Shown one piece after another: positions 4,031 to 44,420 of a stretch of 49,002 nt of DNA. This DNA is from Candidatus Kerfeldbacteria bacterium (GTDB taxonomy: Bacteria > Patescibacteriota > Patescibacteriia > Veblenbacterales > UBA10138). Made by a program: the position numbers and the translations under genes. The stretch spans positions 1 through 49,002 of the forward strand of contig JACRFN010000042.1 in the NCBI GenBank assembly GCA_016217875.1. Reading direction: 5' to 3'. The notes below the pieces were generated by a model that worked only from the letters and a program-made list of their open reading frames with translations, had not been told where the DNA came from and ran no database searches. Each line of letters opens with the position of its first letter. The stretch's first letter is position 1.

Positions 4031-4813
4031 TTAACCTAATTCGATCTGCGCCACTAAAAAGCCTACCTTAAAAGGGGCTTCGTAAGAAAGGACTTTGGTG
4101 GTTATCTTACGCTGTCGCAGCCCAGAATATAAAACAGCGGCCGGAGCCCACAAACACTCCCGGCTGCGCCAACGTATGGCCGGATCAATATTGAGCAGGG
4201 TATCAAGCTGGTGGTTGGTAAGGGCGGCTTGAAAAAGCTTATCGAATAAAACAGACTCAGTGACAGCCTGGCCCAAATGATGGGCCAGGTCTCCGCTAGC
4301 CAGTACGACTACCCTGGCCTGAGCCCGTGCCCAAGCTTCTTCTAACAGCTGTGACAGTTTTCCTAAATCATCAAGTGACACTTGTGACGGCACTTGCAGG
4401 CAACAGACAGGCAGGCTATTTAAGGGCTTATCCAAATATGTGAGAGGGATGCTGAAAATGTAAGGCAACTTGACCGGGCTCAACATGGGCAGGGGAAATT
4501 TTGTTTCGCCGCCTTCTTTTAAGAGATAAGTAAAACCAACTGCACCAGTAAACTCACCCTGCGTTACTAAGTCGCCAAATTCGGCAAAGGAGGAAAAAAA
4601 TTTGGGGGCTTGGAGTAAATGATATCCCGCCGCCTCAATGGACTCAGGCTGGGCGGCGATTATTAAAATAACATCTGGTTGTAGGGCGTATAATTCAACC
4701 GCCAATTGCCCAATGGCCGCGCTCGTTTTGACAGCCTGCGCTCTGACCTCGGGCAATAACCCTGGTAAAAGAAGAGGGGAGTGTGGCAACAATCCTGCGC
4801 CGACAATGGGCAT
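4031..4813 (-). CDS. LigB/DODA-like (class III extradiol dioxygenase / Memo-like fold) protein, tentative
   Basis: N-terminal LLPHSPLLLPG and VVVLASGDLAHHLG blocks. The ORF track starts at 4852, but codons 1-13 lie inside the repeated element that is noncoding upstream of serS. The ATG at 4813 aligns with the serS ATG. Confidence 0.55.
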   Translation of the reverse strand: MPIVGAGLLPHSPLLLPGLLPEVRAQAVKTSAAIGQLAVELYALQPDVILIIAAQPESIEAAGYHLLQAPKFFSSFAEFGDLVTQGEFTGAVGFTYLLKEGGETKFPLPMLSPVKLPYIFSIPLTYLDKPLNSLPVCCLQVPSQVSLDDLGKLSQLLEEAWARAQARVVVLASGDLAHHLGQAVTESVLFDKLFQAALTNHQLDTLLNIDPAIRWRSRECLWAPAAVLYSGLRQRKITTKVLSYEAPFKVGFLVAQIELG

Positions 4814-4971
4814 ACCCAGTATATCAATCACAGTAGTAAAGCCGATGTCCATCGGCTCACTACCGGACTTCGCTTCGACCCATGTCTGGGGTAAGAAGCG
4901 GAACGAATTAGGTGAGTGGAGTCCCGCACACCAGGCTTGGCATTGTTGTGTGGGATTGTATTACTGGGCAT
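4812..4971 (-). repeat. MITE-like structured intergenic element, copy 1 (~160 nt, imperfect ~18-nt terminal inverted repeats)
   Basis: It aligns end to end with 27500-27650. The TIR pair is ATGCCCAGTAATACAATC versus ATACCCAGTATATCAATC (14 of 18 match). The internal hairpins are conserved. Confidence 0.75.
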
Positions 4972-6368: not shown

Positions 6369-6437
6369 GACGCTATTATATCACGGAACAGCCAGTAAGT
6401 GAAAAATAAAATCTTGCTTCCGGCAGCGGCGCCCGAG

Positions 6438-25111: not shown

Positions 25112-26266
25112 TTACACCAAGACTCGCGGTAATAAAGGATTGATTCTGGTGACTATCTCATAATTAATCGTACCAGTTTTATCGGCCATGTCATCAGCCG
25201 TCAGCTCTCCCCTACCCTGTTTACCTATTAACACCACCTCGTCGCCTACTTTAACATTTTTTAAACCCGTCACATCGGCCATAAAGATATTCATACAAAT
25301 TCTACCAATAACAGGGCAAAGTGTCCCGTGGATTAACACCCGGCCCTTATTGGAAAGAGCACGATCATAACCATCCCAATAGCCCACTGGCATAACAGCC
25401 ATACGCGTAGCCCGCCCCGTGACATAAGTGCGATCATAGCCCACGGCTGTACCAGGGGGCAGGTCTTGCACTTCAATAATCTGGGTTTTCCAAGTCAACG
25501 ACGGCTGCAGTCTAAACCTGTGATGCCGCGCCTGAACAAACTGTCGATTGGCTGCCGAAGGCCACAGGCCATAAAGCCCGATGCCCAGCCGCACTAGAGA
25601 CAGACGCGCTTCAGGCGCGGCGGTTGAGGCGGCAGTGCCGGCTATATGCTGCAGAGTGTCTTGAGGCACCAGCCCACCCGCCTGCTTGATGAACTTTTTA
25701 TAAGTATTGAGCTGTTGTTTAAGAAAAGTCTGGTCACGCGACTCGGCGGTGGCAAAATGAGAGGCAATGCCCTCTAGTTTAAGATAAGGTGAGCGCAAGA
25801 TGTACCTTAGGTAAGACTTAGCCTTATCTATCGAGACACCCAAACGAGCCATGCCTGTTTCAAGTTTCAAATGCACCCGCGCACAGGTTGCGACCTGTTG
25901 GGCTACTTGAGCCAAAGTCTTTAAAGCCTTAAGCTCATATACCATAAACGAAACATTGTGTTTTATCCCGTCTTTAAGCTCTGGCTGGCTTAAGGGATGA
26001 TAATAGCTCAACACCAAAATGGGTAACCTAATGCCCGCCTGACGCAAAGCCATAGCCTCGCGCAAACTGGCTACACCCAGCCAATCAACCTGGCCGGACT
26101 TTTGGGCCACCCGAGCTACCAGCTCTAGGCCATGACCGTAAGCATTGGACTTCACCACCGCAAGCAGTTTAGTGTCAGAACCCAATAAACGACGGTGGGC
26201 ACGGATGTTTGACACCAGTGCCCGCTCAGAAATCTCTACCCAGGAATGCGCTAAGGCCTGCTTCAT
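25112..26266 (-). CDS. alr: Alanine racemase
   Basis: AVVKSNAYGHG (PLP-lysine motif), 384 aa, and a 4-nt overlap with serS. Confidence 0.9.
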   Translation of the reverse strand: MKQALAHSWVEISERALVSNIRAHRRLLGSDTKLLAVVKSNAYGHGLELVARVAQKSGQVDWLGVASLREAMALRQAGIRLPILVLSYYHPLSQPELKDGIKHNVSFMVYELKALKTLAQVAQQVATCARVHLKLETGMARLGVSIDKAKSYLRYILRSPYLKLEGIASHFATAESRDQTFLKQQLNTYKKFIKQAGGLVPQDTLQHIAGTAASTAAPEARLSLVRLGIGLYGLWPSAANRQFVQARHHRFRLQPSLTWKTQIIEVQDLPPGTAVGYDRTYVTGRATRMAVMPVGYWDGYDRALSNKGRVLIHGTLCPVIGRICMNIFMADVTGLKNVKVGDEVVLIGKQGRGELTADDMADKTGTINYEIVTRINPLLPRVLV

Positions 26267-27501
26267 GATACCGACTTGCCAATTAATTCACGGCCTCCCA
26301 TATACGGCCGCAGTACTTCGGGGATGGCTATAGTGCCGTCGGCCTGCTGATAATTCTCCAGAATGGCAATAATGGGACGGTTACTGAATACCGTGCCATT
26401 CAGCATATGTACAAACTCCAACTTACCGTCTTCTTTTTTATAACGGATATTTAGACGACGTGACTGAAAATCAGTAGTCGTGGAGCAGGAGTGAGTTTCA
26501 CGGTATTTATTCTCAGAAGGAATCCAAGTTTCAATGTCATATTTTCTGGCGGCTGGAACGCCCAAATCAGCGCTACACATTTTAACGACTTGATAGGGCA
26601 GGCCAAGCCCCTGCATCAATTTTTCCTCTATTTGCAAAAGCAGCTCATGCTCCCCGTCTGATTCTTCCGGCGTAGTATAAATGACCATTTCCAGTTTGTT
26701 AAACTGGTGCACGCGCAAAATACCTTTGGTATCCTTGCCGTAGGAACCGGCCTCGCGCCTAAAACAGGAAGACCACGCCACGTAGCGCCGCGGCAGAGTT
26801 TTAAGGTCAAATGTTTCGTCCATATGCATGGGACCAACTGACTGCTCGGCGGTGGCCACCAGATAGAGTTTGTCTTCCTTAAGATGGTATGTTTCTTCTT
26901 CACCGCCATGCTCCAAATAACCCATGGCACGCATGGCTCGCTCTCCTATCAACACTGGCGGAATCACCGGCATAAAATCGCGCGGCAACACTTCGTCTAA
27001 ACCGTAACGCACCAGCGCAAATTCTAATAACGCCGCCTCGTTTTTAAGATAACCAAAACGCGAACCGGAAACCTTGCCAGCGCGCTCCATGTCGATCAAA
27101 TCGTGCCTCTGGGCGAGCTCCATATAATCACGCGGCTGAAAAGCAAACTTAGGCGTTTTACCCACCTGGCGCAAAACCTCGTTGTCTGATTCATCCTTAC
27201 CTACTTTTACATCCGGGCGAGGAACATTAGGCAACTCTACCAACAAAGCCTCTAGTTTAGCCGCAGTGGCACTTAACTTGTCTTCCTTAGTCTTAACTTG
27301 AGTTTTTAATTCCCTGGCCGTCTCCCTATCGCCCGCGCCCAAGCCTTTTTGCCGACGCCGCAATTCGTCCACTTCGGTTTGCAAAGCCCGTCGCTCTTCA
27401 TCCAGCTTTAAAATAGCCTTAACATCAGCCTTAACGCCCTTGGCGGCCGCGCCCTTTTGCACTTCCTTTGGATTTTCACGAATGAATTTAATGTCCAACA
27501 T
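26263..27501 (-). CDS. serS: Seryl-tRNA synthetase
   Basis: MLDIKFIRENP start and a coiled-coil arm, plus class II core blocks (FRREAGS, GTVFSNRPIIAILENYQ). The ATG at 27501 is preferred over the TTG at 27516 used by the ORF track. Confidence 0.92.
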   Translation of the reverse strand: MLDIKFIRENPKEVQKGAAAKGVKADVKAILKLDEERRALQTEVDELRRRQKGLGAGDRETARELKTQVKTKEDKLSATAAKLEALLVELPNVPRPDVKVGKDESDNEVLRQVGKTPKFAFQPRDYMELAQRHDLIDMERAGKVSGSRFGYLKNEAALLEFALVRYGLDEVLPRDFMPVIPPVLIGERAMRAMGYLEHGGEEETYHLKEDKLYLVATAEQSVGPMHMDETFDLKTLPRRYVAWSSCFRREAGSYGKDTKGILRVHQFNKLEMVIYTTPEESDGEHELLLQIEEKLMQGLGLPYQVVKMCSADLGVPAARKYDIETWIPSENKYRETHSCSTTTDFQSRRLNIRYKKEDGKLEFVHMLNGTVFSNRPIIAILENYQQADGTIAIPEVLRPYMGGRELIGKSVS

Positions 27502-27650
27502 AGCCCAGTATATCAATCCCAGTAGTAGAACCCTTGGTTCACTACAGGACTTCGCTTCGCCATGTGATTAGGAGAAGCGGAACGAATTAAGTGAGTGGAG
27601 TCCCGTACACAATGCCTGGCATTGTTGTACGGGGTTGTATTACTGGGCAT
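27500..27650 (-). repeat. MITE-like structured intergenic element, copy 2 (151 nt)
   Basis: It aligns with 4812-4971 over its whole length. The TIRs lie at 27633-27650 and 27500-27518. The 5' end overlaps the rdgB stop codon, and the 3' end supplies the AT of the serS ATG. Confidence 0.75.
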
Positions 27651-42633: not shown

Positions 42634-44193
42634 TTACTCTAGTAACCGACCACTGAAAGTAGACAGAACGCTGGATAAAAAATCCCCGCGATTATGATCA
42701 CTCCCCTCTTCCAACACCCCATGGATAGACATTTCTACAGACAAGATCTGTGCCAGGGCCTGCTCCACTACCTGACGAACTTTGGGATCTTGCACGCGTT
42801 CCTGATGAAGCTTGTACTGAAAACCGATAGTCAAAGTATTGCCTTCCAGTTTAGTTGGCTTGGCAATGGAAAGAATAAACGACAATGAATGATTGAAATC
42901 ACGCAGCTTAGCTACTACTTCCGGCCAGCGCTTAGCTATTTCCTCCAAGCTGACTTGGCTTGACGCTAAATTAACTAGTGGTGTCGGGCTAGCTCTTGAA
43001 GCCGCGACTGACAGGCGGCTGTGGGACTCTTTGGCTTGAGATGTGCGGCCTACGGCCTGATCATTATTTGAACCAGTAGACCCGGGGACCACAGCAAATC
43101 CCTCCTGACAGATAGCCACGGCCCCAAGCTCCAGCGGTAACTGATAAACCTCACTCTGTTGCCAGGTTTTCTCCAGGGCCAGCCATGTTTCCAGCATACT
43201 TTGCAGTCTGCCCTGGGTAAGCTCCCCTGACAATTCTGTCAGACTGGCAAAGACTTCATCTCCTTCCTTGGCCTTATCTTGGCTGCCCAACTGTCCACCC
43301 AACTTGATCAGCAACAGCTGACGCATCAACTCCAGAACCTGTTTGTAAAAGTAGCCAAGTTCACCGCCTTCGTCCAAAAAATTATTCAGCAAGGCTACGG
43401 CCTCACCGGCTTGGCGTAAAATCAAATGACGCACAAACGACAAGGCCACTTTAACGTCAGAGTGCGGCAGAACTAAATGGGCCTGGGCGGTGGTAATTTT
43501 CTTTTCTCCCAAACTTAACAGCTTACCCAAATAACTTTCCGCGTCGCGGGACGAACCGCCGGCCAAGCGCGCTATTTCTTCCAACACGCTCTGCTCCACC
43601 TTAACGCCCTCAGCCTGGCTGAGTGTGATCAAGCGGCGCACCAGATCAGCTGGCGTCAGCCGGCGGAAATCAAAACGCTGACAGCGAGAAACTATGGTCT
43701 CGGGCAGCTTGTGTACCTCGGTGGTAGCCAAAACAAAAATAACATGCGCCGGCGGCTCCTCCAATGTTTTGAGTAGAGCGTTAAAAGCCTCGGCCGTCAG
43801 CATATGCACCTCATCGATAATAACTACCTTATAGTGAGAGCGAGCCGGGCCGTGGGGAATATTATCGCGCAACTCACGAATGTCGTCGATACGACGATTA
43901 GAAGCGGCGTCAATTTCTATCAAATCAAATGAACGCCCCTCGTTAATAGCCTGACATGTGACGCACTTATTGCATGGTTCAGCCTCACCTGGCTTACGAC
44001 TTTCGCAATTAACAGCCTTGGCCAAGAGCCTGGCCATAGTCGTCTTGCCGACGCCGCGCATACCACAAAATAAATAGGCGTGGGTGAGGCGCCCGAGCTT
44101 GATTTCATTCTCTAAAGTGACCTTAATATGGTCCTGGCCGACTACCTCGCCGAAAGCCTGGGGACGATACTTGCGGTACAGAGTTTGAGTCAT
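42634..44193 (-). CDS. dnaX: DNA polymerase III subunit gamma/tau
   Basis: Walker A GMRGVGKTT, Zn module CESRKPGEAEPCNKCVTCQ, VVIIDEVHML, and SRCQRF sensor. Confidence 0.92.
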   Translation of the reverse strand: MTQTLYRKYRPQAFGEVVGQDHIKVTLENEIKLGRLTHAYLFCGMRGVGKTTMARLLAKAVNCESRKPGEAEPCNKCVTCQAINEGRSFDLIEIDAASNRRIDDIRELRDNIPHGPARSHYKVVIIDEVHMLTAEAFNALLKTLEEPPAHVIFVLATTEVHKLPETIVSRCQRFDFRRLTPADLVRRLITLSQAEGVKVEQSVLEEIARLAGGSSRDAESYLGKLLSLGEKKITTAQAHLVLPHSDVKVALSFVRHLILRQAGEAVALLNNFLDEGGELGYFYKQVLELMRQLLLIKLGGQLGSQDKAKEGDEVFASLTELSGELTQGRLQSMLETWLALEKTWQQSEVYQLPLELGAVAICQEGFAVVPGSTGSNNDQAVGRTSQAKESHSRLSVAASRASPTPLVNLASSQVSLEEIAKRWPEVVAKLRDFNHSLSFILSIAKPTKLEGNTLTIGFQYKLHQERVQDPKVRQVVEQALAQILSVEMSIHGVLEEGSDHNRGDFLSSVLSTFSGRLLE

Positions 44194-44196
44194 AGC

Positions 44197-44340
44197 ATAC
44201 CCGGTATATCAACTTCGCTTAACCACCGCGAGCACCGGCAGGTTGAACGAGCAGAAGGAATTAAATAACTCATTACAATACATAAAGTTATTAGACCCGG
44301 TGGTTGAAATTAGCTCTAGCGAAGTTGTATTACCAGGCAT
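44197..44340 (-). repeat. MITE-like element, copy 3 (144 nt, divergent interior, same termini)
   Basis: TIRs ATGCCTGGTAATACAACTTC and ATACCCGGTATATCAACTTC (15 of 20 match). Further internal inverted repeats are AACCACCG/CGGTGGTT. It shares blocks ACTTCGCT and GAACGA..GAATTAA with copies 1 and 2. Confidence 0.65.
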
Positions 44341-44420
44341 AACCCATTGTAGCGGCGGACCAACACAAAAGCAACCCCGCGCCGTAAGACTCGGAGCCTT
44401 AGGTTAATTAACTCGCCTGA

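Follow-up and report, generated by a model that had tools for sequence, protein, structure and literature searches.

The window analyzed here, a 49,002-nt stretch of contig JACRFN010000042.1 (assembly GCA_016217875.1), is contig C8 of the genome of a Candidatus Kerfeldbacteria bacterium (denoted G000; 982 kb, 139 contigs, 49.5% G+C) and contains three copies of a short, hairpin-ended element located between minus-strand genes. The genes that flank the three loci encode a LigB-like protein, seryl-tRNA synthetase (SerRS), Ham1/RdgB, and DnaX, with the SerRS sharing 69% identity with its nearest named relative, a Candidatus Kerfeldbacteria metagenome-assembled genome. A preliminary description of the window had proposed that the three loci belong to a family resembling MITEs (miniature transposable elements with inverted repeats). 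All three are present on the minus strand as described and have the form ATG-CCCAGTAATACAA...TTGATATACTGGG-T-ATG. Copies 1 and 2 can be aligned end to end (81% identity), and copy 3 has in common with them only its ~20-nt ends and a few interior blocks. Features of the three copies, including the open reading frame (ORF) that runs through each of them (the pass-through frame), are as follows.

4811-4971, minus strand: copy 1 (type A, sub-family F1), left ATG at 4969-4971, regenerated ATG of the LigB-like gene at 4811-4813
4828-4971, minus strand: pass-through frame of copy 1, 47 codons, ending at TGA 4828-4830, 14 nt before the host ATG
4949-4968, minus strand: left terminal repeat of copy 1, CCCAGTAATACAATCCCACA
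4815-4834, minus strand: right terminal repeat of copy 1, ...GATTGATATACTGGG, with a single T between it and the host ATG
4827-4869, minus strand: third hairpin of copy 1, AGTCCGGTAGTGA...TACTACTGTGAT
4901-4921, minus strand: unpaired segment of type A in copy 1, CTCCACTCACYTAATTCGTTC, near-invariant
27499-27650, minus strand: copy 2 (type A, F1), left ATG at 27648-27650, serS ATG at 27499-27501, right junction CTGGG-C-TATG
27513-27650, minus strand: pass-through frame of copy 2, 45 codons, ending at the TGA of TTGATATAC (27513-27515), 11 nt before the serS ATG
27640-27642, minus strand: TAA in the left repeat of copy 2, at which the upstream Ham1/RdgB gene now terminates
27601-27634, minus strand: first internal hairpin of copy 2, CCCCGTACAACAATGCC...GGCATTGTGTACGGGA
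44196-44340, minus strand: copy 3 (type B, 139-nt class, F1 ends CCTGG/CCGGG), left ATG at 44338-44340, regenerated ATG at 44196-44198
44209-44340, minus strand: pass-through frame of copy 3, 43 codons, ending at TGA 44209-44211 in the right repeat, 10 nt before the regenerated ATG
44318-44337, minus strand: left terminal repeat of copy 3, CCTGGTAATACAACTTCGCT
44200-44219, minus strand: right terminal repeat of copy 3, AGCGAAGTTGATATACCGGG

The stop codon of the ORF upstream of copy 1 (TAA 4974-4976) lies 2 nt before the left ATG, and the reported overlap of copy 2 with the rdgB stop codon was found at the TAA inside its left repeat. The two-codon mini-ORF previously noticed at dnaX, ATGCTATGA, begins at the regenerated ATG of copy 3, and its TGA overlaps the dnaX ATG (44191-44193). 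Copy 3 is thus a partial exception to the position at start codons described below, with the dnaX ATG lying 5 nt beyond the right end and regenerated ATG. The native sequence 5' of copy 3 (44341-44420) ends in ...CCGCTACAATGGGTT-ATG, comprising a -10-like TACAAT, GGGTT, and the left ATG, and is similar to the right end of the element, TATACTGGGT-ATG. Because the -10-like hexamer and GGGTT directly precede the left ATG, the dnaX promoter may now drive the element frame.

Mechanically called ORFs run into the element at two of the loci, with the LigB-like gene (4031-4852) extended to an ATG at 4852 and serS (26263-27516) extended to a TTG at 27516. In genomes of this kind that are annotated automatically, these starts are probably misplaced. 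The annotation of CPR (Candidate Phyla Radiation) genomes is affected in two ways, in that gene callers extend ORFs into the element and contigs break at its copies.

Insertion at start codons

G000 was searched for further copies, as the preliminary description had recommended. Searching with both ends recovered at least 44 complete copies (136-184 nt, with one copy of 260 nt), and ~20 more are truncated where a contig stops; many of the 139 contigs terminate in a copy. All 44 complete copies have the same polarity. The right end, ...TACNGGGT (...TACNGGG-T), is followed by the ATG of the host gene, and in 38 of the 44 copies this ATG opens a long ORF with a recognizable N-terminus. Host genes identified by their N-termini include those for ribosomal proteins S12 (rpsL), S7, L2 (rplB), L5, L6, L13, L17, and L10, as well as CTP synthase (pyrG), SerRS, and others. 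The remaining six comprise five copies with a further copy in tandem behind them and the 260-nt copy, whose true right end is also at a gene start. Contact with the start codon, which had been noted for the three loci of the window, was therefore observed but is a general rule rather than a peculiarity of those loci. The left end always starts with a second ATG, usually 2-6 nt past the upstream stop codon (median ~5 nt from stop to left ATG in 27 co-directional contexts).

Homologous ends were sought in an order-level sample of 21 genomes representing 14 genera and in a class-level sample of 201 genomes (denoted by G numbers, with contigs and loci denoted by C and L numbers). A 17-nt right-end motif occurred 50 times in G000, 0-50 times per genome, and in 16 of the 21 order-level genomes (13 of 14 genera), and its reversed control gave no matches. 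A degenerate left-end pattern identified the superfamily in 33 of the 201 class-level genomes, with a patchy distribution and with identical ends across different families. No IMG/VR viral contig matched the 19-nt left end.

Relatives that lack the element at orthologous loci were found, as had been proposed as a check. At the rdgB-serS junction, G020 lacks an element and the two genes overlap (AATTATGCTTGA), a single type-A copy is present in G000, and the junction in G015 contains two dissimilar copies arranged in tandem. Across the S10/spc operon of 18 relatives, most junctions comprise a stop codon, 3-15 A/T-rich nt, and ATG. Filled junctions were found upstream of rpsG in G000 and G012, rplC in G005, G018, G002, G008, and G016, both rplN and rplX in G016, rplX in G015, and rpsQ in G005; all of these end in ...GGT-ATG, and the occupied genes differ between genera. 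The observation that orthologous rdgB-serS and S10/spc junctions, compared across 18-20 relatives, are empty, or are filled at different genes, indicates that the elements were inserted and that the ATG was duplicated. The left ATG is the original start codon of the host gene, and the second ATG, after the right end, now starts that gene.

The left flank sometimes has C or A before the ATG and the right junction keeps T, which indicates that the duplicated unit is ATG and that the T is probably derived from the element. ATG (usually TATG) is accordingly present at both ends of a copy, and the empty orthologous sites have a single ATG. The duplicated ATG may reflect a staggered-cut duplication or may have been carried by the element. 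A crude gene model of G000 yielded 626 TATG sites at start codons and 924 other intergenic TATG/CATA sites, such that exclusive use of start codons is unexpected under random intergenic insertion. C was present at position +4 in 43% of element-bearing genes versus 23% of others (p = 0.005).

Tandem copies have a TATG in common. The largest arrays comprise at least three complete copies, and one locus of G015 shows four right ends at regular intervals. In G015, arrays with three or four regularly spaced right ends each were observed at C11:1-600, C6:49000-49570, and C3:1-620 (L143, L141, and L139), with the frame of each copy stopping 10-29 nt before the next ATG. Collectively, the many copies, terminal inverted repeats, duplicated ATG, tandem arrays, patchy occupancy of orthologous junctions, and full-length partners that have these ends too (see below) bear out the proposal of a MITE-like family.

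Hairpin structure and the pass-through frame

The terminal inverted repeats comprise 17-23 nt, with CCCAGTA-ATA-CAAC... pairing with ...GTTG-ATA-TACTGGG, and positions 8-10 form a constant 3x3 mismatch in sub-family F1. Copies were analyzed in sets that differed by question, namely the 44 complete copies of G000, 92 distinct copies for pairing of the ends, 91 for ORF chains, and 64 for openness of the frame. The two ends had been proposed to covary, and they do so across the 92 copies: position 4 is A-T in 56, C-G in 15, G-C in 8, and mismatched in 11, and positions 15-18 behave alike. Copies 1, 2, and 3 fold more stably than their dinucleotide shuffles (z = -5.2, -7.7, and -5.0, respectively). 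Double compensatory changes were identified at 5 of 46 predicted pairs in type A, including the first internal hairpin, and at 12 of 30 pairs in type B (the 139-nt class), including the inner 8-bp helix; the ~70-nt loop of this class is unstructured and variable. In the first internal hairpin, the compensatory change previously reported is upheld by 11 type-A copies, in which three pairs change from C-G to U-A or from A-U to C-G. The arms that had been given for copy 1, CCCGCACA / TGTGTGGG, required correction, as they are CCCACACA / TGTGCGGG with one A.C mismatch. No Rfam family matched the window at gathering thresholds or two copy-bearing loci at E <= 1.

The predicted terminal stem takes in the A and U of the host ATG. 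The earlier suggestion that pairing of the terminal repeats in a read-through transcript occludes the start codon is plausible on this predicted fold, and a frame that passes through the element would be needed because the stem would otherwise occlude the host ATG.

Several further aspects of the structure were noted. The unpaired segment CTCCACTCACYTAATTCGTTC (4901-4921 and 27580-27600 in the window) is almost invariant in the 11 type-A copies, and the neighboring helices vary. The third hairpin of type A, CCGGTAGTGA...TCTACTACTGG (4827-4869 and 27516-27551), resembles the outer ends of F3, CCCGGTAGTGAAAC...GTTCTACTACCGGG. This hairpin also occurs alone, at 30-40 nt and away from start codons, at C39:2707-2738 of G000 and at L002 (G008), L004 (G012), and L003 (G031), and it may represent a nested or minimal derivative. 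The left repeats of all families contain stop codons in one or both of the non-ATG frames within ~25 nt (TAA in CAGTAATAC, TAG in CGCTAG; e.g., 27640-27647 in the window), so that an upstream gene that formerly overlapped its neighbor ends quickly, as does RdgB at copy 2.

In most copies, the frame of the left ATG is free of stop codons up to a TGA in the right repeat (GTTGATATAC) that lies 10 nt before the host ATG, and in other copies it continues further and overlaps the host ATG by 4-31 nt. The resulting ORF, of 10-62 codons, is the only one in short copies. This frame has no stop codon in 40 of 64 copies, the other two forward frames are open in 1 and 0 of the 64, and shuffling of the interiors with their composition preserved yields an expectation of 13.8 open copies of 64 (maximum 22). 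Most of the 25 clusters defined by interior similarity are open. The 139-nt class is represented by 12 copies from four genomes with 32-68 differences from the class consensus, and 11 of the 12 are open; a neutral model with random substitutions predicts that ~20% of such diverged copies would stay open. Copies with an early stop codon nearly always have an ATG within ~20 nt that starts a second frame leading to the same TGA, including a conserved internal TTTATG restart. With such restarts counted, 86 of 91 copies have a chain of ORFs that starts at the left ATG and ends between -35 and +30 nt relative to the host ATG, compared to 34 +/- 4 when interiors are dinucleotide-shuffled. The 3-nt asymmetry between the two repeats appears to provide the in-frame TGA.

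A small conserved ORF (MPSNT...) had been put forward as a possible alternative explanation of the similarity between copies. The ORF is present and its openness is kept, but the peptide is not conserved: entropy in the 139-nt class is 1.06, 1.05, and 1.10 at codon positions 1, 2, and 3, respectively, with no bias among positions. Equal variation at the three codon positions suggests that openness rather than the peptide is conserved, and a conserved peptide was ruled out for lack of a third-position excess. The frame is open in 0 of the 16 copies in which it would be fused in frame to the host protein versus 42 of the other 75 (p = 1e-5). We discounted this absence of in-frame fusion as independent evidence, since a frameshift into the other, stop-rich frames gives the same outcome without selection.

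The translational context of the host bears on this frame. In G000, GGAGG is found before only 2.7% of the 635 starts that were inferred and any 4-mer core before only 13%, T is present at position -1 of 63-66% of start codons (63% of the 635), and the ribosomal operon has a clear AGGAG only before tuf. The rarity of Shine-Dalgarno sequences together with very short spacers indicates that internal cistrons probably depend on termination-reinitiation, and, given such dependence, a structured insert of 140 nt would be disruptive unless ribosomes cross it.

Nuclease-coding partners and competing explanations

The family also has a full-length form of ~316-320 nt with the same ends and junctions, in which an ORF encoding a ~100-aa GIY-YIG protein extends from the left ATG to the TGA in the right repeat. 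One such element in G000 (C41:1893-2212) has F2 ends and a 99-codon GIY-YIG ORF that begins at the left ATG (MPSNKT...) and ends at the TGA in the right repeat; directly 3' of it are TATG and an F1 short copy. Two F1 full-length copies in G000 are split over contig ends (5' halves on C105 and C106, 3' halves on C123 and C89), and complete F1 copies of 316 nt were identified in G016 and, as two in tandem on C6, in G015. Candidate autonomous elements of 316-320 nt with F1 or F2 ends identical to those of short copies are thus present in G000, G015, and G016. Proteins of 99-100 aa encoded by these elements match the Pfam GIY-YIG family (E = 1.7e-16 and 2.5e-18) and comprise the catalytic domain alone; among solved structures, 1zg2 and 1ywl (both UPF0213 proteins) are the closest, and SLX1 gives a faint match. 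A Pfam search of the order identified 8 small GIY-YIG ORFs besides UvrC in G000, 18 in G015, and none in G003, G009, or G010. At the level of sequence, these comparisons establish a mobile, hairpin-ended family that has inserted at start codons with duplication of the ATG, that has maintained its hairpin and open frame, and whose nuclease-coding partners use the same frame. We infer that the GIY-YIG protein is the mobilizing enzyme.

Other candidates and relationships were considered and rejected. Short copies are not recognizable as internal-deletion derivatives of the nuclease gene, since no similarity was detected beyond the ends. A Y1 transposase of the IS200/RAYT type was rejected as the mobilizer because PF01797 is absent from the copy-rich G000, G015, and G016; it was detected in only 4 of the 21 order-level genomes, where its presence is unrelated to copy number. 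A multi-copy transposase in G000 was also rejected, since comparison of all ORFs by self-BLAST gave only ordinary paralogs and duplicates at contig ends. An integron attC-like reading of the conserved AAC/GTT was set aside because the flanking genes are syntenic core genes. Four further GIY-YIG genes of G000 (79-97 aa) have no element ends (C26:8027-8263, C119:11476-11766, C46:3257-3520, and C39:64-351). The gene on C26 is flanked by the direct repeat GGCGGAA(C/T)TGGTATAC, which resembles the 5' part of a tRNA gene and may point to a different insertion habit of related nucleases.

On balance, we consider it probable that the three loci are non-autonomous MITE copies of a hairpin-ended element of Patescibacteria that targets start codons, that has a nuclease-bearing full-length form, and whose frame is adapted to preserve translational coupling. 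Under this model, a ribosome ending the upstream gene would restart at the left AUG and translate through the element, and its transit would melt the long terminal stem that would otherwise pair with the host AUG. Termination ~10 nt before the host AUG would be followed by reinitiation there, such that host expression would be barely affected by the insertion. In full-length copies, the same arrangement would allow the nuclease to be expressed without a promoter or ribosome-binding site of its own, and both full-length and short copies would be moved by the GIY-YIG nuclease through its action on ATG targets and the conserved DNA hairpin. More tentative, and in our judgment somewhat short of probable, is the proposal that the short and ~316-nt copies constitute an undescribed minimal class of transposon. 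Such a class would (i) encode only a hairpin-recognizing GIY-YIG nuclease of ~100 aa, (ii) integrate at start codons and borrow the start codon, transcription, and coupling of the host, (iii) hand over the ribosome via the stop codon in the right repeat, and (iv) include gene-less copies selected as translatable spacers.

Several observations weigh against this model. About one third of copies stop early and need a second start codon, and 5 of 91 lack any chain. Open frames are found in 20 of 27 copies behind co-directional genes versus 8 of 16 others, a trend that is not significant (p = 0.18), and a preference of open frames for coupled contexts was accordingly dropped. Translation of the pass-through frame is argued from statistics only. 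The counts are not independent because copies are kin by descent, a concern that the division into 25 interior clusters tempers but does not remove. The model does not account for how a start-codon ATG would be discriminated from any other ATG. With regard to the nuclease, 26 of the 30 small GIY-YIG loci inspected in the order lack element ends, and the F1 full-length junction was detected in only 4 of the 201 class-level genomes and in neither of the MITE-rich genomes G044 and G053. Given this scarcity of partners and the loci without ends, the link between nuclease and MITEs rests on shared ends and junctions and not on co-occurrence. Finally, we know of no mechanism by which a GIY-YIG domain of ~100 aa integrates DNA.

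The strongest competitor is that the copies are purely selfish insertions, in which the position at start codons reflects enzyme specificity, the open frame is a remnant of the nuclease gene, and the hairpin serves transposition only. The start and stop of the frame (left ATG and right-repeat TGA) are identical to those of the nuclease ORF, sub-families with early stop codons have multiplied nonetheless (e.g., 140/141-nt copies of G014 and 137-nt copies of G000), and the link of open frames to coupled contexts is not significant, as noted above. However, the interiors of short copies have no detectable similarity to the nuclease gene, copies that differ from their class consensus at 32-68 positions are still open in one frame where neutral survival would be ~20%, and copies with early stop codons nearly always have a restart ATG in register. 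We therefore judge this explanation unlikely, if worth serious consideration.

The preliminary description had suggested that the element donates a promoter for leaderless or short-leader mRNAs. According to this hypothesis, the right end, TGATATACTGGG, comprises an extended -10 and a GGG discriminator that together act as a mobile outward promoter for the downstream gene. The motif fits TGnTATACT perfectly, TATACT is the most frequent -10-like hexamer before genes of G000 with long upstream gaps, and the two repeats differ in a conserved, asymmetric manner. Such genes of G000 often have a strong TATACT or TATAAT ending 6-9 nt before the ATG (e.g., window 6369-6400, before the ORF from 6368). 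The closeness of such hexamers to the ATG suggests leaderless mRNAs, so that leaderless starts seem to exist in this genome. Yet the hexamer of the element ends 4 nt before the ATG, where native hexamers, which peak at 6 and at 8-9 nt, are under-represented. TGnTATACT is confined to one sub-family, and sister families have GTTATTGTTACTGGG, GTTCTACTACCGGG, GTTGCTCTGCTGGG, or GTTAATGTATCGGG at identical positions, without any -10. A consensus promoter scan at copy 2 identified no promoter, many copies lie within ribosomal-protein operons where an extra promoter per gene is unnecessary, and the need for an in-frame TGA accounts for the repeat asymmetry. Given the 4-nt spacing, the sister families, and the negative scan, the right end does not resemble an outward sigma-70-type promoter, and any promoter activity is at most putative. 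The TGA within TGnTATACT would more simply be read as the stop codon of the element's own frame. A donated promoter is thus unsupported, and we regard this hypothesis as improbable.

Marginally less probable again is that the element is primarily an RNA punctuation or stability element, i.e., a co-transcribed hairpin that is cut by RNase III, in the manner of Correia elements, or by RNase P/Z next to a tRNA-like 7-bp terminal stem, separating cistrons or stabilizing the downstream mRNA. The very stable fold (z = -5 to -7.7 relative to shuffles), the compensatory changes in helices, the layout of a 7-bp terminal helix followed by one U and AUG, and a mild excess of sense-strand G.U over A.C mismatches (30 vs. 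16) are consistent with such a role. However, it leaves the maintained open frame and the placement of the TGA unexplained, no Rfam family matches even at E <= 1, and conservation of the hairpin is equally expected if the nuclease recognizes a DNA hairpin. A role at the RNA level is also compatible with translation through a mobile element rather than exclusive of it.

An immobile cis-regulatory leader RNA (a riboswitch or attenuator) common to many genes would account for a structured 5' region directly before start codons and for the near-invariant unpaired segment of type A, but is very improbable because it is contradicted by patchy presence at orthologous junctions and by arrays of at least three complete copies in tandem, and because the downstream genes are unrelated in function, identical ends enclose interchangeable interiors, nuclease-coding full-length versions exist, and Rfam has no match.

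If the model of a mobile element that is translated through is correct, it would represent a mobile element shaped by the mechanics of host translation, one that survives in compact, Shine-Dalgarno-poor CPR genomes, ribosomal-protein operons included, by being translated rather than by avoiding genes. It would also provide a natural handle on how internal cistrons are initiated in uncultured CPR bacteria (by termination-reinitiation or independently). A bare GIY-YIG domain of 100 aa as the sole protein of a transposing element would make this the smallest autonomous DNA element known and would imply a new, structure-guided chemistry of integration.

Comparison with known mobile elements

Our literature search found no description of start-codon-specific MITEs or of hairpin-ended GIY-YIG elements in Patescibacteria. 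Correia elements (CREE, or nemis, of Neisseria), ERIC, RUP, and BOX are alike in being non-coding repeats of 100-160 nt with terminal inverted repeats that form a single long hairpin and in having many intergenic, co-transcribed copies that influence the expression of neighboring genes. Correia elements duplicate TA, insert in either orientation without a fixed spacing to genes, and are presumably mobilized by DDE transposases. In contrast, the elements described here target the ATG of start codons, have an invariant orientation and a stop-free frame that links two ATGs, and have a GIY-YIG rather than a DDE partner. Correia elements are characterized by a TA target, both orientations, and a 26-nt repeat with a site for integration host factor; the present elements have an ATG target, a single orientation, and unrelated end sequences.

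Start codons go unmentioned in a review of prokaryotic MITEs from 2024 (PMC10969869). The review describes Rickettsia palindromic elements as ~150-nt palindromic, stop-free sequences that are translated with host genes (PMC10969869). Those elements lie in frame within coding regions, form part of the host protein, and have a conserved peptide, whereas the present elements are intergenic, are never in the host frame, and do not conserve a peptide; neither the open fusion frame (0 of 16 copies) nor the unequal variation among codon positions expected of a Rickettsia-type element was found.

Derivatives of IS200/IS605 (PATEs) and REP/RAYT systems resemble the present family in conserving hairpins over sequence, in their strict orientation to a short asymmetric target, and in lacking a conventional DDE transposase, and the type-A copies with subterminal hairpins at both ends add to this likeness. 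They differ in that the two ends of the present elements are mutually complementary and in that the Y1 (HUH) transposase that such systems require in the genome is absent from the copy-rich G000, G015, and G016.

The full-length form invites comparison with GIY-YIG homing genes (Seg of T4-like phages) and with UPF0213/Slx1-type nucleases, which are likewise small, selfish GIY-YIG genes wedged between host genes. Homing endonucleases combine the nuclease domain with a distinct DNA-binding domain and spread only to the cognate site in an allele that lacks them. The present nuclease is instead a bare catalytic domain of ~100 aa in an element with hairpin ends, gene-less derivatives, and dozens of unrelated sites in one genome, a combination that does not fit a homing endonuclease.

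The short copies are less than ~300 nt in length, lack a transposase gene, have terminal inverted repeats, and occur as dispersed copies with insertion polymorphism between relatives. Collectively, these elements are MITEs in kind and are distinct from those described previously in their target, strict polarity, pass-through frame, and type of partner.

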